IMG/VR virus record: IMGVR_UViG_2681813004_000013
Location: 1 to 10,226 of that record
DNA from: a virus
Taxonomy: Duplodnaviria; Heunggongvirae; Uroviricota; Caudoviricetes
DNA length: 10,226 nt
Reading direction: 5' to 3' (one strand)
Made by a program: the position numbers and the translations under genes. Below, one piece after another: positions 1 through 10,226 of this stretch. The notes beneath the pieces are model-generated. The model ran no database searches. It worked only from the letters and a program-made list of their open reading frames with translations, and had not been told where the DNA came from. How positions within the stretch are numbered: the stretch's first letter is position 1; each line of letters opens with the position of its first letter.

Positions 1-233
1 TTAACCTGGTCGCATTTTTCCTTCGACAGCTTCATTCCCGGTATGACGGGCTTACCATCCACCATTGTGGCACCACGACAGATGGTCCATATACCGGAAC
101 CATCGCGGTATGCCGTAGTGTGGTTACCCTCTTTTTCATCCAGAAACTGGTCAAGTATTTGAGGAGCAGATGCGCCTGCTCCAATCAGCGCCAGAACGAC
201 CGCTGACAGGCCGTATTTGATTTTTGCGTTCAT
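1..233 (-). CDS. Phage endolysin (lysozyme, T4-lysozyme/GH24-like) with N-terminal SAR-type signal-anchor; only the 5' part of the gene is in the window (it continues past coordinate 1)
   Basis: Minus-strand ATG at 231-233 opens a frame with no stop before the window edge. Translation starts MNAKIKYGLSAVVLALIGAGASAPQILDQFLDEKEGNHTTAYRDGSGIWTICRGATMVDGKPV: a Gly/Ala-rich weakly hydrophobic N-terminus followed by an E...D...T spacing typical of SAR endolysins such as phage 21 R. It sits downstream of a pinholin gene. Not in the ORF track because it is truncated by the window edge. Confidence 0.8.
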   Translation of the reverse strand, partial: MNAKIKYGLSAVVLALIGAGASAPQILDQFLDEKEGNHTTAYRDGSGIWTICRGATMVDGKPVIPGMKLSKEKCDQV

Positions 234-338
234 GGATATTTATCAGGATTTATCGGTTTCTGAACCCTGGATATGTTTATCTGTCCCGGCCTGTTGAATC
301 AGGCGGGGAAAAGGTAAAGACAATCAAGAGGATTATTT

Positions 339-611
339 ATGGACAATAACACCATTTCTCTACAGGAGTTGCTCGACTGCATTTCCAGGCTTCGGGATGA
401 TGTAAATGCCCTCACTGTTGCATTTTCATATCTGGCTTTCTCAATTCCCAAAGAACAAATGAAACCAACACTGGCATCGCTTCTGCTTGAGTCACGCAAC
501 CCCAAATGGTCCCAGGAACAACAAAATTCTTTCAAGTGGCTGGCGGCATTACTGGAAGAAAAATATGCTGGTAAAATTACCATTTCGGTGGAGTCTTCAG
601 AGAACCAGTAA
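339..611 (+). CDS. Hypothetical 90-aa protein, moron-like insert transcribed opposite to the lysis genes
   Basis: ATG at 339 is preceded by AAGAGGA (326-332) with a 6-nt spacer. The translation is protein-like (amphipathic, no low-complexity runs), whereas the overlapping minus ORF 299-646 is Ser/Cys-rich and GTG-initiated. A plus-strand intrinsic terminator follows at 654-682. No family recognised. Confidence 0.55.
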   Translation: MDNNTISLQELLDCISRLRDDVNALTVAFSYLAFSIPKEQMKPTLASLLLESRNPKWSQEQQNSFKWLAALLEEKYAGKITISVESSENQ

Positions 612-921
612 TTCTTCCCGGTAGCTTTCCTTTGTAGGTTATCCACACATTATGCGCCTCTAAAATTACGGGGCGCTTTTCCGGCGACTGCTCACTCCCT
701 TCACATAACCCGGCAGCAACATCCAGGAAGACCTGTCTGATGCTCCTTCTGGCTGCTGCCTCATAAAACTCCAGCGCGGCACCTTCAACACGGTCCAGCG
801 AGATGTCCAGGTCAAAAATTTCACCGTCAAAGCGTTTTTTGTCCCGTAACGCTAAAGTTACCGTAACTTTATTCTCAAAATTGCGGATCCCTTTCACAAT
901 CAGTTCATAGTTTTGAGTCAT
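577..921 (-). CDS. YdfR-like small protein of lambdoid lysis cassettes (DUF1327-like); C-terminal part possibly altered by the adjacent insert
   Basis: ATG at 921 with GGGGAGAG SD about 9 nt upstream, 4 nt after the holin stop (926). Its position between holin and endolysin matches the essQ-ydfR-rrrQ order recalled for the Qin prophage. The 3' 100 nt overlap the plus-strand moron ORF and its terminator. Confidence 0.55.
   Translation of the reverse strand: MTQNYELIVKGIRNFENKVTVTLALRDKKRFDGEIFDLDISLDRVEGAALEFYEAAARRSIRQVFLDVAAGLCEGSEQSPEKRPVILEAHNVWITYKGKLPGRITGSLKTPPKW
654..682 (+). terminator. Putative rho-independent terminator for the plus-strand moron ORF
   Basis: GCGCCTC (654-660), 9-nt loop, GGGGCGC (670-676; 7-bp stem with one G-U), then TTTTCC (677-682). 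Lies 43 nt after the stop of ORF 339-611. Confidence 0.4.
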
Positions 922-925
922 TGAA

Positions 926-1141
926 TTACTCTCCCCGTGCAGCCTTACGCTTGTCTTCTTTAATCTTGAAATAAAGGTTTGTCAGATACGTCAGCAAGCC
1001 AAATACCAGACTACCCAGCACACCTATTGCCGCCCACTGTGAGGGCGTGACTTTATCGAGCAACTGTAAAAACCAGTACCCGGCACTACCTGCTGAGGTG
1101 CCATAGGCGACACCCGTTGTTAACTTATCCATGGATTTCAT
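926..1141 (-). CDS. Class II holin of the phage 21 S (pinholin) family with dual-start motif
   Basis: Translation [71 protein letters not shown] (71 aa): two TM segments, a charged C-terminus, and the Met1-Lys2-Ser3-Met4 start arrangement known from S21 (antiholin/holin pair). GAGGTGGGG SD upstream of ATG 1141. The ORF track extends it to a GTG at 1204, which I consider less likely to be the start. Confidence 0.85.
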
Positions 1142-1208
1142 AACCCCACCTCGCAGATGCGGGTGCTGTGTAATGGAAATAAAAAGGCCACCTGACGTGG
1201 CCACCAGA

Positions 1209-2141
1209 TTATTTCCCCACCAGCTCGTTTATCTCTTTCACTGTCTGGTTAAACCGCTCTGACTCAAGCTCAACACCTAAGGCCCGACGCCCCAGCGCCA
1301 TTGCTGCTTTTATTGTGGAACCGGATCCCATAAAAAAATCAGCAACCAGATCACCTGGTCGACTACTGGCATTGATTATTTGCCTGAGCATATCCGCCGG
1401 TTTCTCACACGGATGTTTCCCCGGGTAGAACTGAACGGGTTTATGCATCCAGACATCGGTATAAGGCACGGAGACTGATACGGAGAAATAGCGCCGGAGA
1501 GATTTAAACTCATCCAGCAATTCAGAATATTTGCGATTCAGTGAATCATAAGATGCCACCAGCTGGTGGTGTGGTTGTTCCAGTTGTTGTTCCTGAAACT
1601 TCTCTGCCGCTATACGGGAAAACAGTGCCTGTAACTTCCGATAGTCAGCCTCATTCGGCAACTGCCACTGACTGGCACCAAACCAGTGGGAAACCATATT
1701 TTTCTTACCTGTGGCTTCGGCAATTTGTTTTGCCGTTATACCCAGTTCGGCACGAGCATCCCTGAAATACGATATCAGCGGTGCCATTATGTGCTGTTTG
1801 AGTTCCCTTTCTTTTGCCGCATAGCCGTCACTTTTGCCGCGATATGGCCCCTGGTAATGTTCAGCAAACAGAACGCGCTCTGTGGCAGGAAAATATGCGC
1901 GCTGACTTTCTTTATTACACCCATTCCAACGTCCGGACGGCTTCGCCCAGATGATATGGTTAAGCACGTTGAAACGTTCACGCATCATGATCTCAATATC
2001 AGATGCCAGGCGATGCCCACAGAACAGGTAAAGGCTTCCGGCAGGTTTTAACACCCGCCAGAACTGGGCCAGACAGTGGTCCAGCCACTTAAGGTAATCT
2101 TCGTCCCCTTTCCACTGATTGTCCCAACCGTTAGGTTTCAC
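1209..2141 (-). CDS. DNA methyltransferase, N6_N4 (beta-class, CcrM-like) family; apparently lacks the N-terminal DPPY catalytic region (possible 5'-truncated remnant)
   Basis: C-terminal motifs HPCEKP and DFFMGSGST (motif I, FxGxG) plus internal [12 protein letters not shown] and NHIIWAKP match beta-class MTase signatures. No D/S-PPY motif is found upstream of RVLKP in the ORF or in the in-frame upstream extension, which runs into tRNA-Thr. The first start codon is GTG at 2141, with AAGGGAG about 10 nt upstream. Confidence 0.6.
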
Positions 2142-2187
2142 CTTCAGTCTGCTCCCTTTGGCCGCTCGGGAACCCCACCGGACTTGA

Positions 2188-2263
<76 letters not shown>

Positions 2264-2265
2264 AC

Positions 2266-2341
2266 TGGACCGCCACCGGGGACTCGAACCTCGCACACTC
2301 AACTTAAAGGGTTGACGCTCTTTCCTGATGGCTAGTGGCGG
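2266..2341 (-). tRNA. Atypical tRNA-like gene (positional anticodon UUU, loop CCUUUAA); possibly degenerate
   Basis: Minus-strand CCGCCACTAGCCATCAGGAAAGAGCGTCAACCCTTTAAGTTGAGTGTGCGAGGTTCGAGTCCCCGGTGGCGGTCCA has a perfect 7-bp acceptor stem, T-loop TTCGAGT, encoded CCA and a perfect 5-bp anticodon stem TCAAC/GTTGA. Position 33 is C instead of U, the D-stem is only 2-3 bp, and the T-stem has one A-C mismatch. Confidence 0.5.
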
Positions 2342-2342
2342 T

Positions 2343-2418
2343 TGGTGGCCCTTGCTGGATTTGAACCAGCGACCTGGCGATTATGAGTCGCTCGCTCTCA
2401 CCACTGAGCTAAAGGGCC
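2343..2418 (-). tRNA. tRNA with CAU anticodon, ileX/ileZ-like (tRNA-Ile2 reading AUA after lysidine modification, or tRNA-Met)
   Basis: Minus-strand GGCCCTTTAGCTCAGTGGTGAGAGCGAGCGACTCATAATCGCCAGGTCGCTGGTTCAAATCCAGCAAGGGCCACCA: canonical cloverleaf, anticodon loop CTCATAA. It is close to the E. coli ileX sequence as I recall it. Confidence 0.85.
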
Positions 2419-2446
2419 GAGCCAAAAAATAATAATCAGATGAAAA

Positions 2447-3160
2447 TCAATAATCAAGCCCTTGCCTGGATACATATCTGTCTGGCGGGAAGCCATAATA
2501 GCGGTGAAATACAGAAATAAAGTAGGACCTGCTTGAATAACCGCATTTTTCTGCTATAGCCTGTCCATATCCATGCCGGGAACATAACATATTTACAGCA
2601 ACACGCATCCGCTCTTCCAGCAACAAGCGACTGAACATGCCCCCTTCATTTTTCAGTTTTGTCTTTAACAAACTCTCACTCATATGCAACTGTAGAGCAA
2701 TCGCACCAAGCGTCCAGCTTGCTGATATATCTGTCTGAATTATCGCCCTGACTTTGGCACTTATGCTGGATAAACATCCACTTAAAAACAATGACATCCG
2801 TTCATCTGTTTCAAACAGAGACAGGCAGGCCATCATAAGAAACATATCCGTGGCCTCTCCGGAAAATCCCTGGCTGGTAATTAAAGCCGCAGCCAACGCA
2901 GGATTGTTGGGTTCCAGCAACAGGTAAAGCGGAATGTCAGTCAGACGAGTCCTCGTCAGCTTATGCTGACTTTCCAGATATTGACTTACGACGGATTCGC
3001 TTATATCGACAATTTTAACTTTGCCATAATGCATAAGGAAAAGCTCCCTGATGCATTTGGTGGCCAGAACAACTGAGCCTGGCTTAAGTGACAACGTATC
3101 CTTTTCAAGAAAAATATTAATTGGGGAGCAAACCATGATAACTGAACAGACAACAGCCAT
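2447..3160 (-). CDS. AraC-family transcriptional regulator, AppY-like (prophage-encoded regulator type)
   Basis: The C-terminal 100 aa carry the AraC double-HTH signature (…IAEKCGYSSRSYFISVFHRYYGFPPDRY). The N-terminus MAVVCSVIMVCSP…KVKIVDI aligns with the N-terminus of E. coli AppY as I recall it (MDYVCSVVFICQS…KLRIVDI). ATG at 3160 sits in an AT-rich leader. Confidence 0.8.
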   Translation of the reverse strand: MAVVCSVIMVCSPINIFLEKDTLSLKPGSVVLATKCIRELFLMHYGKVKIVDISESVVSQYLESQHKLTRTRLTDIPLYLLLEPNNPALAAALITSQGFSGEATDMFLMMACLSLFETDERMSLFLSGCLSSISAKVRAIIQTDISASWTLGAIALQLHMSESLLKTKLKNEGGMFSRLLLEERMRVAVNMLCSRHGYGQAIAEKCGYSSRSYFISVFHRYYGFPPDRYVSRQGLDY

Positions 3161-3280
3161 TATAATTTTACTTTCATTAGCAATTGGTTAGCTCAATTAT
3201 AGCCCCAAAAGGTAAATTATCATCAACACATAAGCAAAGGACTGACAGGTGTCGCCCCCCACCAGCCGCCCATTCACCAC

Positions 3281-3307
3281 AAATAAAAAGCCTTCAGGAC
3301 TGAAGGC
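3281..3307 (-). terminator. Rho-independent terminator after the small wHTH gene
   Basis: Minus-strand RNA GCCUUCA-GUCC-UGAAGGC followed by UUUUUAUUU. The hairpin overlaps the UGA stop at 3294-3296. Confidence 0.55.
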
Positions 3308-3491
3308 GTCTGTAACAACCGCACTGATAGTCTGCCAGACCCGCCATAACAAGTTGGGTCAGTATTAACTGGCAGCGTTCGCGTGAAAGGTAAGTATTCT
3401 GCGCAATCTCCCCGACTGTCGCCGGTTCGGTAACGCTTAATTCATCAAACACAACTCTGGCGGTTTCTGTCATATCCTGCTGTTTCAGCAT
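3294..3491 (-). CDS. Small (65 aa) putative winged-helix DNA-binding protein
   Basis: ORF with its own downstream terminator. The segment ATVGEIAQNTYLSRERCQLILTQLVMAGL resembles a wHTH recognition helix (PapI/FaeA-like proteins come to mind). The start codon is ambiguous: ATG at 3491 or ATG at 3473. Confidence 0.45.
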   Translation of the reverse strand: MLKQQDMTETARVVFDELSVTEPATVGEIAQNTYLSRERCQLILTQLVMAGLADYQCGCYRRLQS

Positions 3492-3614
3492 GTCTTTTTA
3501 CCCTTTCCGGTTAACGTGACATACCAATAACTCTTGTCCAAAAAGCCAGCAAGCAGAAAGACCGGTATTCGCAACCACCAGCGTATTTAACGCCCCGTGC
3601 CGTTTTTCAGTCAT

Positions 3615-3638
3615 AAAAAAACCCGCAAAAAGCGGGCT
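3615..3638 (-). terminator. Rho-independent terminator after the ORF6N-like gene
   Basis: On the minus strand, GCCCGC-UUUUU-GCGGGU followed by a 7-U run (plus-strand A-run at 3615-3621). About 100 nt downstream of the stop at 3735. Confidence 0.6.
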
Positions 3639-3734
3639 CTTTCAAATGTCCATGTCTGCTATTCGCCTCGCGGTACAGCTTTGCGAAGCGTACCGGAATT
3701 GAAGCAGTTTATGGCTAAAATTGCAAGAACTTTT

Positions 3735-4346
3735 TTAAAGCTGCATCAGCCTTTCCACCAGTTTATCTCTGCGAACAACAAACCAACCATTGGCTCTCGC
3801 CAGTTCCAGCCATGACTCAAGGGAAATAACAATATCATCATCCCGCAACTGAATTGTGGAAACAGTGACACCGCCTCGCTGATAACAGAGAACTCGCGTG
3901 TCGTAACTTTTCTGGCATGAAGCTGGCGCTGACGGATCCTTTTGTCTGAAATAGCACTCTTCCAGTTTTTCGAACACATCCCACGCCTGATCGGTTTCGA
4001 GCATTTTGGCGTGACGGGCTGCTCCGCGTTCTGTCCAGAGAATGAGGGAGCGGGCTTTCGGGGAAATTTGTAACCCTCTTAAAGATGGTTGCAAATTTTG
4101 TGAGTTACTTAAAGTAACCCGCAAATTTTGTGAGTAGTTTAAAGCTACCCGCAATTCTTTAAGGTCATTACCAACAACTTTGAAAAAGTGTTTCCCTTCA
4201 ACGAAGCGTACTTTGTTCTCATGATGATTCTGGCGAATGCGCACCGGCTCAGTGCCGTAAAGCTGCGCCAAAAGTTCGGTGGTAATAACAGGAATCTGGT
4301 TATGGGTGATCGGGGAGAGAGTTTCAACAGAAATTTGAGTTGTCAT
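3735..4346 (-). CDS. Phage antirepressor-like protein with N-terminal ORF6N-type domain and internal 10-aa tandem repeats
   Basis: ATG at 4346 with AGAGGG SD about 8 nt upstream. The N-terminal segment VITTELLAQLYGTEPVRIRQNHHENKVRFVEGKHFFKVVGNDLKEL fits the ORF6N antirepressor N-domain pattern as I recall it. The central region encodes repeats LRVALNYSQN / LRVTLSNSQN / LQPSLRGLQI from a 30-bp tandem DNA repeat. Confidence 0.5.
   Translation of the reverse strand: MTTQISVETLSPITHNQIPVITTELLAQLYGTEPVRIRQNHHENKVRFVEGKHFFKVVGNDLKELRVALNYSQNLRVTLSNSQNLQPSLRGLQISPKARSLILWTERGAARHAKMLETDQAWDVFEKLEECYFRQKDPSAPASCQKSYDTRVLCYQRGGVTVSTIQLRDDDIVISLESWLELARANGWFVVRRDKLVERLMQL
4090..4149. repeat. Two tandem 30-bp repeats (25/30 identical), each containing a short dyad-symmetric core, inside the ORF6N-like CDS; degenerate partial copies flank them (about 4063-4165)
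   Basis: Unit 1 is gcaaattttgtgagttacttaaagtaaccc; unit 2 is gcaaattttgtgagtagtttaaagctaccc. The cores are GTTAC-ttaaa-GTAAC and GTAG-tttaaag-CTAC. Four of the five differences between units fall at paired positions and preserve the dyad. Confidence 0.8.
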
Positions 4347-4505
4347 AATGACGCCCTCTGGTGGTTTCTTAATAACTCACCACCGACGACGCCAATCATC
4401 TGGTGGTGAACTGTGCGGGGTTGGCGTAACCGGGAAACCGACCGGCGCGGATCTCTCCGCCCCCACACAGCCCACCATAATTCAGATGTGCGCGTGCATA
4501 CGACA

Positions 4506-4529
4506 ATAAAAAACACGCTCGCGGCGTGT
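4506..4529 (-). terminator. tR'-like intrinsic terminator of the short late leader transcript
   Basis: Minus strand ACACGC-CGCGA-GCGUGU followed by UUUUUUAUUG. Lies about 70-80 nt downstream of the putative late promoter. Confidence 0.6.
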
Positions 4530-4590
4530 ATCTGTCGCGGTCTCTATCCAGGACGCCAATCCCGACGCCAGATTTTGCTGGCGCGTGAGG

Positions 4591-4620
4591 AATATAGCCC
4601 CGGATAACAGATTGAGTCAA
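4591..4620 (-). promoter_or_regulatory. Putative Q-dependent late promoter (pR'-like)
   Basis: Minus strand TTGACT (4620-4615), 17-18 bp spacer, then CTATAT/TATATT (4597-4591). The -35 overlaps the Q stop codon. Directly followed by the short leader and terminator, as in lambdoid late regions. Confidence 0.5.
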
Positions 4621-5183
4621 CAGACGGTTTTTAGATCCCCGGAAGAGAATGCATCACGCATCGGCAGATAGAGCATAAACTCTGCCATTTTCAACCACGC
4701 ATCTATGCGATTACGGCACGTGGCGTAACACCACTCAGGGTGTGAATCATTCAGCAATTCAGCCATTTTGCGCTTAGTCATCCCCCGCCCCACATAACGC
4801 TGACTCAGAACATTGAGCAGCCCGGGATAACCTGCCAGTACTTCACCAATAACCCTGTCGATTATTAACGCCTCTGAATCGGTACAATGTGCCAGCCAGC
4901 TTTTTTGATTGCCGTTGATCATATCCCGCAAAAAAGCCTCAAGTTCAGGTTTGTCCAGACCCGCTTTTTTCATCCTCCGGAGCGCCTCGTTAATTGCCGT
5001 TTTTGTCAGCTTTTTAGAGGTCAGTAATTGGTTGAACATATTTCCCGTCTTACCGTCGCCAATATACGACCAACGCCCCCACATACGCAGTTTCCCCTGG
5101 ATCCAGACACTTTCCAGCGTTTTCAGGCGTAAATGCTCACCGCTTTTGCCTGTAATTTCCGGGTATATCATATTTATGCTCAC
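4617..5183 (-). CDS. Late-gene antitermination protein Q (lambdoid Q-like)
   Basis: Sits between rusA and the pR'/tR'-like elements, the canonical Q position. Size is 184-188 aa; the MWGRWSY motif resembles the RWGRW segment recalled from E. coli prophage Q homologues. The track start is GTG at 5183, overlapping the rusA stop; an in-frame ATG at 5169-5171 is the more likely start. Confidence 0.65.
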   Translation of the reverse strand: MSINMIYPEITGKSGEHLRLKTLESVWIQGKLRMWGRWSYIGDGKTGNMFNQLLTSKKLTKTAINEALRRMKKAGLDKPELEAFLRDMINGNQKSWLAHCTDSEALIIDRVIGEVLAGYPGLLNVLSQRYVGRGMTKRKMAELLNDSHPEWCYATCRNRIDAWLKMAEFMLYLPMRDAFSSGDLKTVC

Positions 5184-5545
5184 TCACTTTCAATTTTGTA
5201 AATCTTCACGCCCAGCCGCCCAACAGAAACGAGCTGACCGCGCACAATATTGATTTCATCAAACTGCTCGTCGTCTATGAGAAGTCCGGCATGCGTCAGC
5301 GCATCCAGCGGTGCTTTCAGAATGTTGTCCAGGTCACGGCGGCGCTTATCCGGTGGCTCTGCAATAATTTTTATTGCCAGCCTTCCGGACAGGTTTAATT
5401 TCAACCTCTGCTGGCGAACAATAAGCGCCACATCACGGCGATAACGCTTTCCGGCCTCCGAGATGAAATACGTATTGCCATGACGTCGCCAGTAGGTATT
5501 CACCGTCGGCGGGTAAGGCAAAACAAATTCTATCCGTTCAGTCAT
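5180..5545 (-). CDS. rusA: Holliday junction resolvase RusA
   Basis: Translation MTERIEFVLPYPPTVNTYWRRHGN…PPDKRRRDLDNILKAPLDALTHAGLLIDDEQ matches the RusA family signature (P-P-S/T-x-N-x-Y, RRRDLDN, D-D acidic pair). The ATG directly abuts the upstream stop (TGAATG). Confidence 0.9.
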   Translation of the reverse strand: MTERIEFVLPYPPTVNTYWRRHGNTYFISEAGKRYRRDVALIVRQQRLKLNLSGRLAIKIIAEPPDKRRRDLDNILKAPLDALTHAGLLIDDEQFDEINIVRGQLVSVGRLGVKIYKIESE

Positions 5546-6604
5546 TCATGCTTTCCACTTCAGGACACCCGAATTTCTCGCGTGCATTAAAAAACGAATC
5601 AGCAACAACAGCTGGCTGCCGTGTTTCTCTTCAAATTCTCTTACCCCGGCATGTAGCTCGTTATGGCAGCGTCTACACAACGGAATAACAAACAAATCGT
5701 CAGCCTTTGTTCCCGTTCCCCCCAGTCCATGACCAATGATGTGATGCGGATCATCTGCCTGATTGCCACACGCCATGCACTTCTGCGTTTTTACCCACCG
5801 CGTGTATATCGGCATCTCTTCACGTTGTGGTTTCTGGCGTCTGAGGTATTGAGCAGGAGACTCCGGATCAACAGTTATGCTGACCACCGCTTTTTCCTGT
5901 TGTGGGTTCTGTTGCTGGTGGGCGTAAGGCAACGGCGCAAGATTTTTTGTGCGCTGCTTCAGTATGCTGGTGGCGCTCTGCTCTCCCGGTACGATGTCGC
6001 TTTCACGGTACATTGAGCGGATTTTTTCCGCACGCAACCCCAGCGAACGACGTAATACCGCTTCCGGTAGCGCGTCCGCCACCTGATTGCGGACCGCCCA
6101 CCAGGATAATTCAGCCAGAGATAATTCCCGTTCCTGTGCACCACTTATTGCGTGACGTATGACGTCAATCATCCAGGCTGTCAGATTTTGTTGAGCAAGC
6201 TGCCCGAGTGATTCGGATGTCTGGTCACGCAGCTGGTTGTCGCAGTGCCAGCACAACACCATTGCGCCGGTACCATAACGGTGAATGACGGTTTCACTGT
6301 GGTGATAATCGCCGTGTGGCCACTGGCAGGATTTAACATGACGCAGTAACCAGTCAGACAATGCGCCAGCGCCACCAGCAGCACGAATCACTCGTTCGTC
6401 GCTGAAAAATGGCAGTAATGATTTATCCTCCGCCAGCGGCTGGCGAACGGCAGGAACGACCCCAGACGGCAGATTACGCATGCTTTTCGGTTCCGGCTCC
6501 ACCAGTACCCGGGTATTGTGGAATACCGGCATGGATTCACGGCCCGGCTTAACGATCACCAGCCCGAGTTCCGGTACCAGAACAGGTCGAAGTAATACCC
6601 GCAC
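5546..6604 (-). CDS. DUF968-family prophage protein (YdfU-like) with C-terminal HNH-like zinc motif
   Basis: 352 aa with a GTG start preceded by GGAGG. The C-terminus CMACGNQADDPHHIIGHGLGGTGTKADDLFVIPLCRRCHNELH has CxxC…HH…CxxCH spacing typical of HNH-type nuclease folds. It occupies the position upstream of rusA/Q that YdfU holds in Qin-like prophages. Confidence 0.7.
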   Translation of the reverse strand: MRVLLRPVLVPELGLVIVKPGRESMPVFHNTRVLVEPEPKSMRNLPSGVVPAVRQPLAEDKSLLPFFSDERVIRAAGGAGALSDWLLRHVKSCQWPHGDYHHSETVIHRYGTGAMVLCWHCDNQLRDQTSESLGQLAQQNLTAWMIDVIRHAISGAQERELSLAELSWWAVRNQVADALPEAVLRRSLGLRAEKIRSMYRESDIVPGEQSATSILKQRTKNLAPLPYAHQQQNPQQEKAVVSITVDPESPAQYLRRQKPQREEMPIYTRWVKTQKCMACGNQADDPHHIIGHGLGGTGTKADDLFVIPLCRRCHNELHAGVREFEEKHGSQLLLLIRFLMHARNSGVLKWKA

Positions 6605-6605
6605 G

Positions 6606-6890
6606 TTACCTCCAGAGCCGTTGCTGGAATGTGCGGGACGGACGCGGTGGGCGTTCGGAGTAAGGAAGCCTGACGGAGATTATCCAGTGACGATAATCGA
6701 GGCTGAGGGCTTCCCTAAACTCATACCCACGCCTGCGGTAGTTCTGAATCAGCCATTCGGCCTGTTCTTCAGTGCATGGGTCATGCTGATACCAGTCATA
6801 TTTGAATGTGTGAGAACGCCGCCCGTGCCTACTGGCAAAGACGGCTGAATTATCAGAATTGTTAATTTTTTTGTAATGCACCACTACCAT
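6606..6890 (-). CDS. Hypothetical 94-aa protein
   Basis: ORF whose stop lies 1 nt from the DUF968 GTG start, suggesting translational coupling. A palindromic TATAAT (6935-6940) lies upstream. The SD is poor (GAGG directly abutting the ATG), so the true start is uncertain. No family recognised. Confidence 0.4.
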   Translation of the reverse strand: MVVVHYKKINNSDNSAVFASRHGRRSHTFKYDWYQHDPCTEEQAEWLIQNYRRRGYEFREALSLDYRHWIISVRLPYSERPPRPSRTFQQRLWR

Positions 6891-6950
6891 CCTCGTAATG
6901 GTGCGACAGACGCCAGTTGTTCAGGCTGGCTTTAACTATAGCATTATAAT

Positions 6951-7118
6951 CTAGTCTTTCTTAATGCTGAAGTGACTGACCGAATCCGCATGCGATTCTT
7001 TGGTGATCAGAATAACATCGGGTGGCAATGGCATTACGATAAATTCACCATTCTCAAGAACTATTACTTCATAATTACCAGATACAGAAAGCGCAGCAAT
7101 TAATTCCTTATCATTCAT
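6951..7118 (-). CDS. Possible small protein (55 aa), not in the ORF track
   Basis: Hand translation gives MNDKELIAALSVSGNYEVIVLENGEFIVMPLPPDVILITKESHADSVSHFSIKKD. Protein-like composition, but only a weak SD (AGGG about 9 nt upstream). Confidence 0.3.
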   Translation of the reverse strand: MNDKELIAALSVSGNYEVIVLENGEFIVMPLPPDVILITKESHADSVSHFSIKKD

Positions 7119-7236
7119 AACAAAACCCTATGAACTTTTAACATTTCCCCTTAAGGGGTCCATCCCTCTTCTCCCTGCGCGCTACTTAAGTATTTTTGAT
7201 TCTATTCCGGCACCTTCAAAAAGCTCAAACGTCTTG

Positions 7237-7270
7237 AAAATAAACAACAAAAAACCCGCCGAAGCGGGTT
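7237..7270 (-). terminator. Rho-independent terminator of the hok transcript
   Basis: Minus-strand RNA AACCCGC-UUCG-GCGGGUU (UUCG tetraloop) followed by UUUUGUUGUUUAUUUU. About 70 nt downstream of the hok stop. Confidence 0.75.
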
Positions 7271-7338
7271 AAGTGCGGGTGCGTTGAGGATGCCTGACAC
7301 ATCAGAGGTGGCGAGGGATTTCTCCCCCGCCGGGTCTC

Positions 7339-7494
7339 TTACTCCTCAGGTTCGTAAGCTGTGAAGACAGCGACCTCCGTCTGGCCGGTTCGGATTCGTA
7401 CCTCGCAGAGGTCTTTCCTCGTTACCAGTGCCGTCACTATGACGGTTAAACAGATGACGATCAGGGCGATTAACATCGCCTTTTGCTGCTTCAT
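7339..7494 (-). CDS. Hok-family type I toxin (membrane-depolarising peptide), HokD/Gef-like
   Basis: Hand translation gives MKQQKAMLIALIVICLTVIVTALVTRKDLCEVRIRTGQTEVAVFTAYEPEE (51 aa), which carries the canonical Hok signature (TM helix, then TRK-LCE-R-G--EVAAF-AYE). AAGGAG SD upstream. Not in the ORF track because it is shorter than 60 aa. Confidence 0.85.
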   Translation of the reverse strand: MKQQKAMLIALIVICLTVIVTALVTRKDLCEVRIRTGQTEVAVFTAYEPEE

Positions 7495-7614
7495 AGCCTG
7501 CTTCTCCTTGACCTTTCGGTCCGTAAGAGGCTAATCTCTATGTGTCGCATAGATATGGCCTCAGATTAATGTTAAGCGTCTTGCCGGACGCGTAATGTTA
7601 ACTGGGGCTTTTCT

Positions 7615-7650
7615 CTGTCTGCCTTACGGCGGCATGCCCGAGGCAGACAG
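7615..7650 (-). promoter_or_regulatory. Long stem-loop in the presumed hok mRNA leader (9-bp stem, 18-nt loop containing the palindrome GGCATGCC)
   Basis: ctgtctgcc (7615-7623) pairs with ggcagacag (7642-7650). No U-run follows on either strand, so it is not a terminator. It lies in the region where hok-family loci carry mok/sok/fbi-type RNA elements. Confidence 0.35.
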
Positions 7651-7711
7651 CCTCAAGCACCCGCAGCAATTCTACTTAACTCTCGCTTTACAGCAAACCG
7701 TTTTTGCCCGA

Positions 7712-7727
7712 TATGGGAATTCCCATA
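7712..7727. repeat. Perfect 16-bp palindrome TATGGGAATTCCCATA
   Basis: Exact dyad centred on GAATTC, in the intergenic space between the stop of the 34-aa peptide gene (7738) and the hok leader. A candidate operator or RNA hairpin. Confidence 0.7.
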
Positions 7728-7737
7728 CGGAATGAAT

Positions 7738-7842
7738 TCAGTTCCCCAGGCGATCCATCAAAAACACAACCAGGCAGTAAACACCCACAACAGCAATAAC
7801 AGCCAGAGCGCCTTCCATTACCAGTGAAATATCATCCGACAT
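7738..7842 (-). CDS. Small hydrophobic peptide (34 aa, single predicted TM helix)
   Basis: Hand translation gives MSDDISLVMEGALAVIAVVGVYCLVVFLMDRLGN. The ATG is preceded by a very strong SD, AAGGGAGGG, with a 4-nt spacer. A promoter-like TTGCTA…TAGTAT/TATATG lies upstream (minus strand, about 7880-7910). Confidence 0.5.
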   Translation of the reverse strand: MSDDISLVMEGALAVIAVVGVYCLVVFLMDRLGN

Positions 7843-7951
7843 ATTCCCTCCCTTGGTGTGAATTCCGGCGAACGTTTTTACCCCCACCGACAAATAACAT
7901 ATACTAGAAAAGCAATAGCTATAGCAACGCCTGCAAATGCATCGGGCCGGC

Positions 7952-8785
7952 TCATTGGTGCGCCCCCTGTATCGCTTCTACTGCGATCTGACTGGCGTAT
8001 TTGTTAATGGTAACGATAAGTTCTTGCTCGGCCTCATCCAGACAACCACCGATACCTCGCCTGTCACCTTCAGAAGCATCGAAATCTGCACGAACCCTGG
8101 CGACCTTCAGGATTGCGGACAACACCTCATCAGGGATTGCCGGAGAGTTGGTTGACGTTTCCGAGGTTATCCGAAAATTATTGGTTGACGAATTCTTATT
8201 TTCCCGAAAGTTTTCGGCATGAAGCATGGCGGTGTTATACCCATCCGCGAAAATCTCTGCTTCTTCGTTATTCAGTTCGGCACCAAGTTTAAGCGCAATA
8301 GCTTTTGCCATTGAGGCGGTAATTTGATGGCATGGCTGACGTCCATGAAGCATGGCGTCGCTCCGCTCTATGCCATCCAGCGCAATTCGAAGCGCATGAA
8401 TTGTAGTAATGCTATCGTTTGGGGTTATTCCGTATCGTTCGAATACAGCGATATGGTTGCGCATAATCGCAGGTGTAAGCTCTTTGTAAGCAAGAGCAAG
8501 AGGTCCAGATACATCGTTCAGCACTACCGTCATCGGTGAGGCGGCGTAGACTTCAATAATCCCAGTATCAATAGGCCATTCCCCATCCTTGATATAGTAA
8601 CTTGTTCCGTCAACTTGCTGTTCTACAATGTGGAAAGCACCTATTGGTTCTGCTTCCAGCGATGCCAGTGCAATTTTGAATAACTCGCCCTCTACCCGTG
8701 CCATCCCTGAATTGGGGTAGCATTTCGCAATCGCTATTTTTAATTTGGCTTCTTCGATTAATTTCTCTTTGGTTAATTCAGTCAC
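7952..8785 (-). CDS. Hypothetical 277-aa protein of unknown function (two predicted domains joined by a Ser/Thr/Asn-rich linker)
   Basis: Long ORF with protein-like composition. The only in-frame start at the 5' end is GTG at 8785, served by a hairpin-bridged AGGAGG. The linker is NSSTNNFRITSETSTNSPAIP. No family recognised from the sequence. Confidence 0.6.
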   Translation of the reverse strand: MTELTKEKLIEEAKLKIAIAKCYPNSGMARVEGELFKIALASLEAEPIGAFHIVEQQVDGTSYYIKDGEWPIDTGIIEVYAASPMTVVLNDVSGPLALAYKELTPAIMRNHIAVFERYGITPNDSITTIHALRIALDGIERSDAMLHGRQPCHQITASMAKAIALKLGAELNNEEAEIFADGYNTAMLHAENFRENKNSSTNNFRITSETSTNSPAIPDEVLSAILKVARVRADFDASEGDRRGIGGCLDEAEQELIVTINKYASQIAVEAIQGAHQ

Positions 8786-8816
8786 TTTTCATTACCGCCC
8801 TTTCGGGCGGCCTCCT
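8783..8816 (-). promoter_or_regulatory. Structured translation-initiation region: AGGAGG, 16-nt GNRA-type hairpin, then GTG start
   Basis: Minus-strand RNA AGGAGG-CCGCCC-GAAA-GGGCGG-UAAUGAAAA-GUG. The linear SD-to-start distance is 25 nt, reduced to about 9 nt if the 6-bp GC hairpin forms. Confidence 0.4.
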
Positions 8817-8820
8817 GACA

Positions 8821-9033
8821 TTAATCGTTGTGATAACTCATAGCTTCATTTGCAGCATCAACTGGATCAACATCCCACCAGCAATAATTTGGGTCGACAC
8901 CTTCAGGTGTCCACGGCTCTAATTCATTTTTTGCTACATTCTCGTCACCAGTAATTTTAAAAATCTGCTCAGAGAATTTTTTTACCCACTCGTTATATTT
9001 TTCCGCGTTAATGGTTTTCTGTGTATTTAACAT
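8821..9033 (-). CDS. Hypothetical 70-aa acidic protein
   Basis: ATG at 9033 with GGAGG SD and a 7-nt spacer. Translation MLNTQKTINAEKYNEWVKKFSEQIFKITGDENVAKNELEPWTPEGVDPNYCWWDVDPVDAANEAMSYHND. AT-rich relative to its neighbours. No family recognised. Confidence 0.55.
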   Translation of the reverse strand: MLNTQKTINAEKYNEWVKKFSEQIFKITGDENVAKNELEPWTPEGVDPNYCWWDVDPVDAANEAMSYHND

Positions 9034-9078
9034 AGATATACCTCCGGTTAAGGATTAAATTTTATTTACAGTGCTGAT

Positions 9079-9438
9079 TTAATATTCAGTTCTGGCTTTT
9101 GTTGCCCTGCGTATCCGCGCTTTCGCGTTACGCTCAATCTGAATTAGCTTTTCTATATTTTTTCGCCTTTCCTGTTCCTCCTGGCGCAATAGCCTTACAT
9201 CATCTGCCAGTCTGGTTTCTCTTTTAGCCACAGAGAGCATCCAGTCAAACGGCTCCACAACTGCACCACAGATTTTGCAGCGGACCTGACGCTCTTTTTC
9301 GTCAACCCGGACAGAAGCGTGATGGCAGTATGGTCTTTCCGATGGCTCATAAAGAAAATTAACCTGATTACGTGGGTCATCCTCTTTTACCGGAAATAAA
9401 ACGATATTGCTTAACTCATCTTCTGGTTTTATTTCCAT
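9079..9438 (-). CDS. Hypothetical 119-aa protein with a Cys/His cluster (putative zinc ribbon) and a basic coiled-coil C-terminus
   Basis: Preferred start is ATG at 9438, preceded by AAAGGAGAGGAG; the track's TTG at 9489 has no SD. Contains YCHH…(15)…CKIC, then a Lys/Arg/Glu-rich helical tail. Confidence 0.55.
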   Translation of the reverse strand: MEIKPEDELSNIVLFPVKEDDPRNQVNFLYEPSERPYCHHASVRVDEKERQVRCKICGAVVEPFDWMLSVAKRETRLADDVRLLRQEEQERRKNIEKLIQIERNAKARIRRATKARTEY

Positions 9439-9495
9439 GCTCCTCTCCTTTGATGCGAATGCCAGCGATAATTGAAGCCTGATAGCCAATTTTAC

Positions 9496-9915
9496 TCACA
9501 GCCCCCCCTGATAATTTCCCTGATAAAACGCCAGCACTCGCTGCATAACTTCGCTCTTCCGGCACTCGCGACAGATTATATTCAGGCGCCTGTCGTAGCG
9601 ACGTATTTCTCCGTCTGGTAATGACCATATAAGGTCAGGATCAACCACAACCGGTTTCTTCAGCTTTGCCCTCGATAATTTTTTGCGGGCGTTTTGCCAG
9701 TCCTTACGAGCCTGTTCAGAGGGGAATAATCCGTAGCCTGAATTGTAAACATCACCACTGGCGACCAGTTCTCTGGCGAGAGTGCTTATGTAATACCTTG
9801 ATGCACCGGTTTTAGCCTCCAGAGCCCGTAACGTCTCGCGACCGCTCAGACGTACAAGTTCAATAACCTGCCCTTTAATTTTTTCTCGCTCTTCTTGTGT
9901 AAAAACTTTTGCCAC
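9496..9915 (-). CDS. Hypothetical 139-aa protein with probable helix-turn-helix
   Basis: GTG start with AGGAGG SD and a 4-nt spacer. The segment RETLRALEAKTGASRYYISTLAREL is HTH-like. A C-terminal CRECRK motif is present. Confidence 0.5.
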   Translation of the reverse strand: MAKVFTQEEREKIKGQVIELVRLSGRETLRALEAKTGASRYYISTLARELVASGDVYNSGYGLFPSEQARKDWQNARKKLSRAKLKKPVVVDPDLIWSLPDGEIRRYDRRLNIICRECRKSEVMQRVLAFYQGNYQGGL

Positions 9916-9955
9916 AAGTCCTCCTGAAAATTACCTCGTGACCTGAAATAAACAC

Positions 9956-10226
9956 TTACCCCCTGAAGCCCGGTGGAATTTCGGTATCCGGTTCAGAAAT
10001 ATGATTCACACAACGCTGGTTGTTCGTGCCGCTTACCGGGAGCAACCAGGGGTTTTCAAAATTTCGGTCCGGTCCAAAAAACGTCGTCGCTCGCTGAACA
10101 AATTCCGTTCCAGTTTTCCCGGTAACCGCCAGATATCTTGCGTAACGCCTCACGCCATCCAGCATGGCCTCTGGTGGCACCCCCTCGCGTAATCTGGCCT
10201 TCCAGGCACTGAAAGCGGATTTCTTC
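9956..10226 (-). CDS. 3' end of an early-region gene of unknown function (the start lies beyond the window end)
   Basis: The minus-strand frame is open from the window edge to the TAA at 9956-9958. The track's Met at 10180 is an internal GTG codon. The translation …AFSAWKARLREGVPPEAMLDGVRRYARYLAVTGKTGTEFVQRATTFFGPDRNFENPWLLP… is protein-like. Confidence 0.45.
   Translation of the reverse strand, partial: KKSAFSAWKARLREGVPPEAMLDGVRRYARYLAVTGKTGTEFVQRATTFFGPDRNFENPWLLPVSGTNNQRCVNHISEPDTEIPPGFRG

Follow-up and report, generated by a model that had tools for sequence, protein, structure and literature searches.

The region behind the Q gene of an E. coli lambda-like prophage: a probable mosaic of an isrK/C4/anrP cassette, a late leader with a small DNA-binding-type gene, and a psrB allele with tRNA genes

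The immI region of P1/P7, reportedly worked out by Citron and Schuster in 1990, encodes a c4 antisense RNA together with icd and ant. The present analysis concerns three regulator-type genes in a stretch of 10,226 nucleotides (nt) of viral DNA (Caudoviricetes; IMG/VR record IMGVR_UViG_2681813004_000013, positions 1 to 10,226), referred to at its full length as the window. All of its coding lies on the minus strand, and the three open reading frames (ORFs), of 203, 65 and 237 amino acids (aa), stand between the gene for the antiterminator Q and three transfer RNA (tRNA) genes; their products are an antirepressor-like protein of the ORF6N type, a small protein of the helix-turn-helix (HTH) type and an AraC-family regulator. 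A described relative of the first is found in the Salmonella prophage Gifsy-1, where the promoter PisrK drives isrK–orf45–anrP. The read-through transcript is translationally silent there, the short IsrK RNA, acting in trans, turns on the translation of orf45 and anrP, and AnrP raises the expression of antQ and induces the prophage (PMC4825925). The third gene has its counterparts in PsrA and PsrB of O157:H7, AraC/XylS regulators encoded only by prophages, which raise gadE and yhiF and so repress type III secretion; PsrB also enhances survival in acid and binds to the promoters of hdeA and gadE (PMC10877973, PMC8565820). With regulators of the PsrB type, prophages can adjust both acid resistance and type III secretion of enterohaemorrhagic E. 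coli (EHEC).

The region is in all likelihood a mosaic in which three lambdoid-prophage modules, independent of one another and each described before, follow a Q gene of the DUF1133 type. The first module is an isrK/C4/anrP cassette (4620–3735), the second a late leader with the first late gene (3726–3290), and the third psrB with three tRNA genes (~3257–2130). The host prophage is a lambda-like prophage of E. coli, and the arrangement is real but ordinary, with no three-gene unit in it. An initial annotation, made from the sequence of the window alone, had located the three ORFs correctly, all on the minus strand; its view of how they belong together did not survive the comparisons described below. 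The novelty is low, since known parts are combined and the function of the AraC-family gene has already been published: the corrections to the slot, the leader and the insertion concern anatomy, and the recognition of PsrB in another genome has annotation value and is no discovery. The small conserved HTH gene is the sole piece of the region without a known role.

Separate occurrence of the three genes

In the initial annotation the three genes were regarded as one “moron” island, inserted en bloc in the late leader behind a late promoter and terminator (pR′/tR′) at ~4600–4506, and independently expressed. The genes are indeed adjacent and co-oriented, a good promoter-like site and a terminator stand right after Q, and the 2.5-kb arrangement occurs in its entirety in 35 complete E. 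coli genomes. Comparison with related prophages showed, however, that the three genes do not travel together. The promoter and terminator behind Q are those of IsrK, and this sequence is met again behind the unrelated Q of Gifsy-1 and, in VT2-Sakai, within the nin region; the ORF6N gene forms part of an IsrK/C4 cassette that is missing from the reference psrB prophage, that of EDL933; and the small gene occurs in other genera without psr or another AraC gene. On these comparisons the island model appears largely refuted and is highly improbable, and the three-gene unit that had been raised along with it as worth examining is not upheld either.

The signals for expression tell against the island as well. 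Each gene was thought to have its own terminator, which is true of the hairpins at 3638–3615 and 3307–3290, but none follows the AraC-family gene, where the fold of 2425–2480 has a z of −0.44. Of the AT-rich spacers that had been taken to imply independent expression, the one ahead of the AraC-family gene (~40% GC; 0.40 over 3001–3300) contains a sigma-70-like site. A consensus scan detected nothing promoter-like in front of the small ORF. As far as the consensus scans go, psrB thus has a promoter-like site without a terminator, and the small gene a terminator without a promoter-like site.

The slot between Q and the small gene holds different contents in different prophages. It is empty in O island 57 (OI-57) of EDL933, where the order is Q–leader–small gene–psrB with no ORF6N gene. 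The isrK/ORF6N cassette fills it in the window and in the 35 complete E. coli genomes, a CAAX protease in Sakai Sp4, two reverse-strand genes in O104:H4, another ORF in phiSTEC1575-Stx2k (where psrB lies upstream of stx2k in the same leader), and a 139-aa ORF in Salmonella. To judge from these prophages, the slot is a swap site for varied cargo, and this variety, together with the separate occurrence of the genes, indicates that the three genes have three separate histories. The two genes in the O104:H4 slot (9313–11705) are annotated as a “nucleoid-associated protein” (1176 nt) and a hypothetical gene (1215 nt), and may be a defence/exclusion pair. In another record, PP818812.1 (Actinobacillus phage vB_Apl-pPE4), Q is found along with the isrK/ORF6N cassette and the leader, at 85–86% identity to the window; its neighbouring genes are also E. 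coli-prophage-like (hok, DUF1133 Q, TerB), and its stated host looks doubtful.

Table 1. Features of the region, in the direction of transcription (SD, Shine–Dalgarno sequence; sRNA, small RNA; wHTH, winged HTH)
Feature	Position	Strand	Evidence and remarks
RusA	5180–5545	−	Directly ahead of Q
Q antiterminator gene, DUF1133 type	4617–5183	−	Pfam DUF1133 E 7e-104; Phage_antitermQ weak; PHROG 753 “anti-termination protein Q-like”
isrK promoter-like site, TTGACT-18-TATATT	4591–4620	−	10/12 matches; −35 hexamer overlaps Q stop codon
c4-a1b1 element (RF03163)	4545–4597	−	Rfam 50.5 bits, cutoff 46.7, full length; overlaps IsrK
IsrK sRNA	4508–4584	−	Rfam RF01394 75.5 bits (cutoff 50), full length 1–77/77
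Upstream ORFs across the C4 element	4343–4516	−	Coding status uncertain; the RNA elements are the conserved feature
C4-type antisense RNA (RF01695)	4399–4482	−	Rfam 67.8 bits, cutoff 45, full length
Putative C4 targets and SD of the ORF6N gene	4354–4396	−	b2 ATTGGCGTC 4396–4388; a2 GAAACC 4368–4363; SD GAGGG 4358–4354; ATG 4346
ORF6N antirepressor-like gene, AnrP homologue	3735–4346	−	Pfam ORF6N E 5e-19, residues 12–115
Likely true late leader	3615–3726	−	Promoter, ~77-nt RNA, terminator 3638–3615; place of Gifsy-1 IsrJ; predicted function
Small DNA-binding-type gene, 65 aa, three-helix HTH/wHTH	3294–3491	−	PHROG 331 E 6e-37, unknown function; SD GGAAAGGG 9 nt upstream
Intrinsic terminator overlapping the small-gene stop	3290–3307	−	7 pairs, loop 4, T-run; fold z −2.1
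psrB promoter-like site, ATGATA-16-TATAAT	3196–3223	−	10/12 matches; AT-rich spacer
psrB allele, AraC/XylS regulator, YdeO/AppY/GadX clade	2447–3160	−	Pfam; identity to O157 copies
tRNA cluster: CAT anticodon (tRNA-Ile in relatives), Lys(UUU), Thr(UGU)	2188–2418	−	ARAGORN; RefSeq at homologous positions
N6/N4 DNA methyltransferase gene, 5′-truncated	1209–2141	−	Without first 40 codons including DPPY; far edge of apparent psrB and tRNA insertion
P21-type holin	After the methylase ORF, in the direction of transcription	−	

The isrK/C4/anrP cassette and the probable late leader

The ORF6N gene is part of an isrK/C4/anrP cassette of the Gifsy-1 type, whose anatomy can be read from the matches in Table 1 and whose mechanism would follow that of its Gifsy-1 counterpart. 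Because the Rfam match to IsrK is full length at this place, the hairpin at 4529–4513, which the terminator scan also lists, is the IsrK terminator, and the site at 4620–4591 is taken to be the isrK promoter, the Gifsy-1 counterpart of which reads TTGACA-18-TATATT; the hairpin had earlier been assigned as tR′ at about 4506, an assignment that is most likely wrong. The a1 loop of IsrK falls at 4577–4571 and its b1 loop at 4560–4554. The C4-type RNA further downstream (loops a′ at 4441–4434 and b′ at 4427–4420) has the same position as in Gifsy-1, and it is in the same place that STnc1160, a stable RNA downstream of isrK, was found in the Gifsy-1 study (PMC4825925). The DNA of this control region is 82% identical to that of Gifsy-1.

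The spacer from Q to the ORF6N gene measures 270 nt. Within it, the b2 element ATTGGCGTC repeats the b1 loop of IsrK and is complementary to b′ of the C4 RNA, and the a2 element GAAACC is complementary to a′ (GGUUUC). As in P1 immI, these would be C4 target sites next to where ribosomes bind the ORF6N message; whole-segment duplex energies were no better than those of shuffled sequences. Two short ORFs run across the C4 element. One, of 57 aa with a GTG start, ends in ATGA on the ORF6N start (“orf34” of VT2-Sakai; phrog_20442). The other has its ATG at 4478, at +107 from the isrK start like orf45 of Gifsy-1, and is brought by a 2-nt indel to a stop at 4377, so that it ends 31 nt before the ORF6N ATG.

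The ORF6N call itself was confirmed, with 68.8 bits against a Pfam cutoff of 27.8. The protein matches PHROG 2379 “anti-repressor” (E 1.3e-92) and aligns end to end with STM2616/AnrP at 52% identity (E 1.6e-63, residues 1–200 against 1–184). The alignment revealed a chimera: residues 1–133 are near-identical to Ant of the nin region of Stx phages (VT2-Sakai), with an extra 10-aa repeat included, and residues 134–203 are of the AnrP type. A 30-bp tandem repeat of 2.1 copies, found by Tandem Repeats Finder at 4091–4154 inside the gene, encodes LRVxLxxSQN units. Relatives are one repeat unit shorter (193 vs 203 aa), and Gifsy-1 AnrP has none; each 30-bp unit holds a short near-palindrome around TTTAA.

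With Gifsy-1 and P1 immI as a guide, a constitutive promoter would give rise to the 77-nt IsrK RNA, and transcripts that read through its terminator would carry the C4-type RNA and the ORF6N gene. RNA structure, together with C4 pairing at a2/b2, would keep the latter from being translated, and the protein, once made, would act as an antirepressor and push the prophage towards induction. Elsewhere in the window, a sub-threshold isrK-like match (30.5 bits, E 0.0016) was seen on the minus strand at 7249–7330, just downstream of hok; it ends in a GC hairpin and U-run and may simply be the terminator of the hok mRNA. The hok/sok pair itself occupies 7339–7662 on the minus strand (Hok ORF 7339–7494, Pfam E 1e-23; sok RNA 7492–7662, Rfam 105.9 bits).

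The isrK promoter and terminator could also be read as the Q-dependent late promoter and tR′, in which case IsrK would be a 6S-like leader RNA and the ORF6N gene the first gene in the late leader. The unit abuts the Q stop codon both in the window and in Gifsy-1, a short terminated RNA with partial read-through is typical of a late leader, and AnrP and AntQ are functionally linked in Gifsy-1. Q-binding sites, however, are specific to the Q type, yet the isrK units of the window and Gifsy-1 share 82% identity although the Q proteins that precede them are unrelated (BLASTP gave nothing significant, with a best E of 0.51). Moreover, a 98.5% identical copy is carried by Stx2 phages in their nin region, which in VT2-Sakai places it more than 2 kb ahead of Q, and OI-57 of EDL933, with the same Q type, lacks the isrK unit and has a homologue of 3736–3615 in its stead. 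The presence of the unit behind unrelated Qs and in a nin region argues that it belongs to the antirepressor cassette and is not tied to the Q type, and its identity with the late leader is unlikely.

The Q-linked late promoter, a leader RNA of ~77 nt and tR′ are more likely contained in 3726–3615, 1 kb beyond the hairpin behind Q. This reading is favored because the block follows the DUF1133 Q directly in OI-57 of EDL933 and because homology behind other Qs starts later. In OI-57 of EDL933, the homology to the window stops at 4727, inside Q, the last ~36 codons of which (from ~4726) differ from the OI-57 allele, and resumes at 3736, at the ORF6N stop; the homologue of 3736–3615 stands there directly behind the DUF1133 Q, and a trace of the EDL933 Q gene, its final 20 nt, can still be made out in the window past the ORF6N stop codon. 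Where the prophage has one of three other Q types, the homology to the window begins at 3589–3626 onward, after the strong terminator, and among the prophages compared the block 3736–3615 was found behind DUF1133-type Q genes only. The candidate promoter consists of TTGCAA at 3726–3721, a 17-nt spacer and an extended −10 element, TGcTTCAAT (hexamer 3703–3698), and a TANNNT element, TACGCT, is present at 3692–3687, where relatives have TAAGCT or TATGCT. Across four contexts this element and the extended −10 are retained, and it is the terminators that differ. In the window, the hairpin at 3638–3615 has a 13-bp stem and U7, and the surrounding 96 nt fold at −33.7 kcal/mol (z −3.7); it was missed by the terminator scan, presumably because the stem can pair into the U-run, but is clear on folding.

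With the late leader at 3726–3615, the isrK/ORF6N cassette would be an insertion between Q and its promoter. The earlier placement of pR′/tR′ is then most likely wrong, and the late leader probably comes after the ORF6N gene and does not enclose it. Upon induction, Q-modified polymerase would read through both terminators, which would lead to the expression of psrB and the tRNAs with the late genes. In Gifsy-1 (33406–33512), the IsrJ promoter, TTGCAA-17-TATATT, begins right after the anrP stop, i.e., in the same place as the leader of the window, and IsrJ may be the pR′ leader RNA of Gifsy-1; no paper stating so was found. Rfam gave no IsrJ match in the window at E ≤ 1 and 100.3 bits in Gifsy-1. 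Pairing of the leader, IsrK or a third hairpin RNA with the −50..+30 region of hha was considered and rejected, the duplex energies being no better than those of shuffles, and no complement of the hha ribosome-binding site was found in the window.

The small gene and the apparent psrB–tRNA insertion

The 65-aa ORF has 295 homologues in Escherichia, Shigella, Salmonella, Klebsiella, Citrobacter and Buttiauxella, the best 120 of which are 77–100% identical, and the helix ERCQLILTQL is invariant in those compared. The synonymous to nonsynonymous codon differences (25:7 for Salmonella and 27:13 for Klebsiella) are mostly synonymous, which indicates that the ORF is a real coding gene. In an AlphaFold2 model with a predicted local distance difference test score (pLDDT) of 73, helices 4–18, 26–32 and 37–49 reach ~80 and the C-terminus is modelled as a helix with low confidence; the top Foldseek matches are all wHTH regulators, yet none is significant (E ≥ 0.28). 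Of the initial description as a small wHTH gene, the conserved gene is real and the general fold class has tentative support; the match to TrmB remains below the Pfam gathering score (17.8 against 25.6 bits), and NCBIfam gave no match. A relationship with SafA, the 65-aa protein encoded upstream of ydeO (K-12 region 3763–3960), was considered and dropped, as BLASTP found no match, so that the equal length appears coincidental. A literature search on the locus tags of the small gene returned nothing relevant. Without a recognisable promoter, the small protein would probably be made only by terminator read-through.

It is the neighbourhood of the small gene in other prophages that suggests its place in the late region. 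In Salmonella and Klebsiella prophages the gene comes after Q (DUF1133 or Phage_antiter_Q), with a 350-aa methylase or TerB next in line and then the holin; an AraC gene is missing from these prophages, and where the methylase follows, no tRNA separates it from the small gene. The small gene is best seen as a widespread first late gene of enterobacterial lambdoid prophages and not as a partner of PsrB. The partnership, in which the small protein would be a repressor of the psrB promoter or an anti-activator and the two genes would form a functional pair, draws on the fact that the small gene adjoins psr in every psr-carrying prophage examined, behind four Q types. Yet the gene is equally conserved (77–88% at the aa level) in Salmonella, Klebsiella and other prophages without an AraC gene, before a methylase or TerB, and relative to those prophages it is psrB and the tRNAs that look inserted downstream of it. 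In addition, the small gene beside psrA in Sakai Sp4 (ECs_1086) is frameshifted after codon 49, yet psrA is reported to be functional. A dedicated partnership with PsrB is thus very unlikely.

A further proposal is that the 65-aa protein, whose gene always comes first behind the late terminator, regulates the late leader itself, through the read-through or silencing of the cargo downstream (psrB, tRNAs, stx, methylase), and that the 77-nt leader RNA (3691–3615) and, by analogy, IsrJ of Salmonella are the constitutive pR′ leaders of non-Stx prophages and act in trans like StxS. It is speculative and unlikely to hold; if it were true, the switch to induction would, with the antirepressor cassette lodged between Q and its promoter, be linked to the output of PsrB.

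Downstream of the small gene, psrB and the tRNAs look like a separate insertion. Between the window and a Salmonella prophage, homology is found at 3582–3258, with the small gene, and at 2129–1240, with the methylase, and the 1.1 kb between the two consists of psrB and the three tRNA genes, the first of which begins 28 nt after the psrB stop. The alignment of the methylase to the 350-aa proteins of Salmonella and Klebsiella starts at their residue 41, and DPPY is present in those only, which suggests that the gene lost its 5′ end through the insertion; in Pfam the match begins at profile position 20, and in PADLOC (MTase_II) at 57/333. Truncated at the 5′ end and without DPPY, the methylase is probably inactive. 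The tRNA set of the window, CAT (Ile2-type), Lys(UUU) and Thr(UGU), differs from the ileZ-argN-argO set in Stx phages and Sp4; a close relative of the window has an additional tRNA-Gly. Around psrB lie Q, RusA, DUF968 and hok/sok on the upstream side and tRNAs, holin and DUF1327 downstream, a setting that corresponds to the post-Q region of a lambdoid prophage.

Identity of sequence marks the AraC-family gene as an allele of psrB, which encodes an EHEC prophage-encoded regulator whose effects on gadE/hdeA and type III secretion are known from the O157 proteins. The AraC-family call was checked by a profile search and stands well above the curated cutoffs (HTH_AraC 50.3 against 26.6 bits, HTH_18 39.8 against 33.6), with the HTH pair at residues 155–230. 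The protein is identical in 234 of 237 residues (98.7%) to the copy of EDL933, which is found at NZ_CP008957 1905274–1905987, within OI-57 (1849324–1929825), the island that holds z2104 = psrB. To the O104:H4 copy it is identical throughout (237/237), and it shares 215 of 237 residues (90.7%) with ECs_1087 of the Sakai prophage Sp4, which the Tree laboratory named psrA (PMC13502914). The O157:H7 genomes carry two psr copies that are themselves 90.7% identical (215/237), in agreement with the 90% published for PsrA and PsrB. The suggestion in the initial annotation that such a regulator carried by a prophage could rewire acid resistance and virulence is thereby borne out, since the gene is that of PsrB and the effect has been published (PMC10877973, PMC8565820). 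Its label “AppY-like” applies at the level of the clade, but the identity is just 28.6% to AppY and 31.1% to YdeO, and with YdeO as the best NCBIfam model the protein scores 108.5 bits against an equivalog cutoff of 348.

The N-terminal motif MxxVCSVI recurs in PsrB, AppY and YdeO and so speaks for a psrB start at ATG 3160, the shorter annotation in Sakai being less likely. There, ECs_1087 is annotated with 588 nt, and the ORF extends to the 714-nt form with a conserved MVVVCSVI start (Sakai Sp4 region 28343–29390). The psrB promoter-like site is also present in OI-57 of EDL933, and in a lysogen psrB would be expressed from this promoter of its own in the AT-rich spacer. Among 5426 complete E. 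coli genomes, 830 have the 714-nt gene; in 595 records the identity is at least 99%, and the exact protein of the window occurs on at least 1000 contigs. A search with PADLOC for a link to anti-phage defence gave no match for the AraC or the small protein and a marginal one for the ORF6N protein (E 4.6e-4).

Several points weigh against the reading of the region given here. Both promoter calls are consensus matches. For the proposed late promoter, the −35 element in EDL933 is a weak one, and the consensus scan did not list the promoter; the leader at 3691–3615 has no Rfam isrJ match, and its isrK match is at chance level (19.8 bits, E 0.97). The single orf45 whose stop overlaps the ORF6N start is not preserved in the window, and with the 2-nt indel the translational coupling of Gifsy-1 may not apply and the mechanism of activation by IsrK may differ. 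As to the third module, the psrA/psrB naming is taken from genome coordinates and from reviews that summarise Tree et al. 2011 and Yang et al. 2015 (PMC10877973, PMC8565820), and the OI-50-like prophage of one EDL933-derived assembly has no psr gene, so that the published mappings, z1789/OI-50 and ECs1087/Sp4, conflict on location.

In the genome concerned, ATCC 43894 (1630000–1675000), it is the nleL/espN/espK prophage matching O-island 50 that has no psr gene. The psrA location sought there was accordingly rejected, and the psrA-type copy was found beside pchA in an Sp4-type prophage; the assignment of z1789 to OI-50 in the literature may go back to the original assembly of EDL933.

Comparison with described systems

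The closest resemblance in the third module is to the psrB (z2104, OI-57) and psrA (z1789) loci of O157:H7. The protein is the same within 3 of 237 residues for PsrB and 90.7% identical for PsrA, and all three loci belong to a lambdoid prophage and place the gene after Q and the 65-aa gene and 28 nt before an ileZ-type tRNA. The window differs from them in that the isrK/anrP cassette lies between Q and the leader, that a truncated methylase follows, and that its tRNAs are Ile(CAT)-Lys-Thr as opposed to Ile-Arg(-Arg). AppY (DLP12) and YdeO (K-12) align with PsrB over the full length and share with it the MxxVCSVI motif and the C-terminal AraC HTH pair; AppY, however, is encoded at the far end of DLP12 and not behind Q. 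The targets of all these regulators are acid-stress or stationary-phase regulons (PMC10057817).

For the first module, the counterpart is the antQ-isrK-orf45-anrP-isrJ region of Gifsy-1 (Hershko-Shalev et al. 2016, PMC4825925), in which the elements have the same order, after Q and on the same strand, and in which a short terminated RNA likewise follows the antirepressor gene, and then a tRNA. The differences are that the Q proteins are unrelated (DUF1133 in the window, Q82-like in Gifsy-1), that orf45 is broken in the window by the 2-nt indel, that the RNA after the ORF6N gene is not IsrJ, and that the window protein has, compared with AnrP, the extra 10-aa repeat and an N-terminal part of the Stx-phage type. 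With P1/P7 immI the window shares a C4-family RNA on the antirepressor transcript, with a1/b1 upstream and putative a2/b2-like sites by the ribosome-binding site. Its antirepressor, by contrast, is of the ORF6N type and not P1 Ant, its leader is a separately terminated sRNA (IsrK), and no icd gene is found between C4 and the ORF6N gene, where there are just short, poorly conserved ORFs.

The late leader, finally, can be compared with pR′–6S RNA–tR′ of lambda and with the StxS leader (PMC7547250), with which it shares a promoter right after Q, a short terminated RNA and cargo, consisting of tRNAs and a conversion gene, placed before the lysis genes. The promoter sequence and the Q type differ from both, and in the window the leader would be expected to depend on its DUF1133-type Q. 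Within this common plan, psrB is placed where stx sits in the Stx phages, and in phiSTEC1575 psrB and stx2k are found in one leader.

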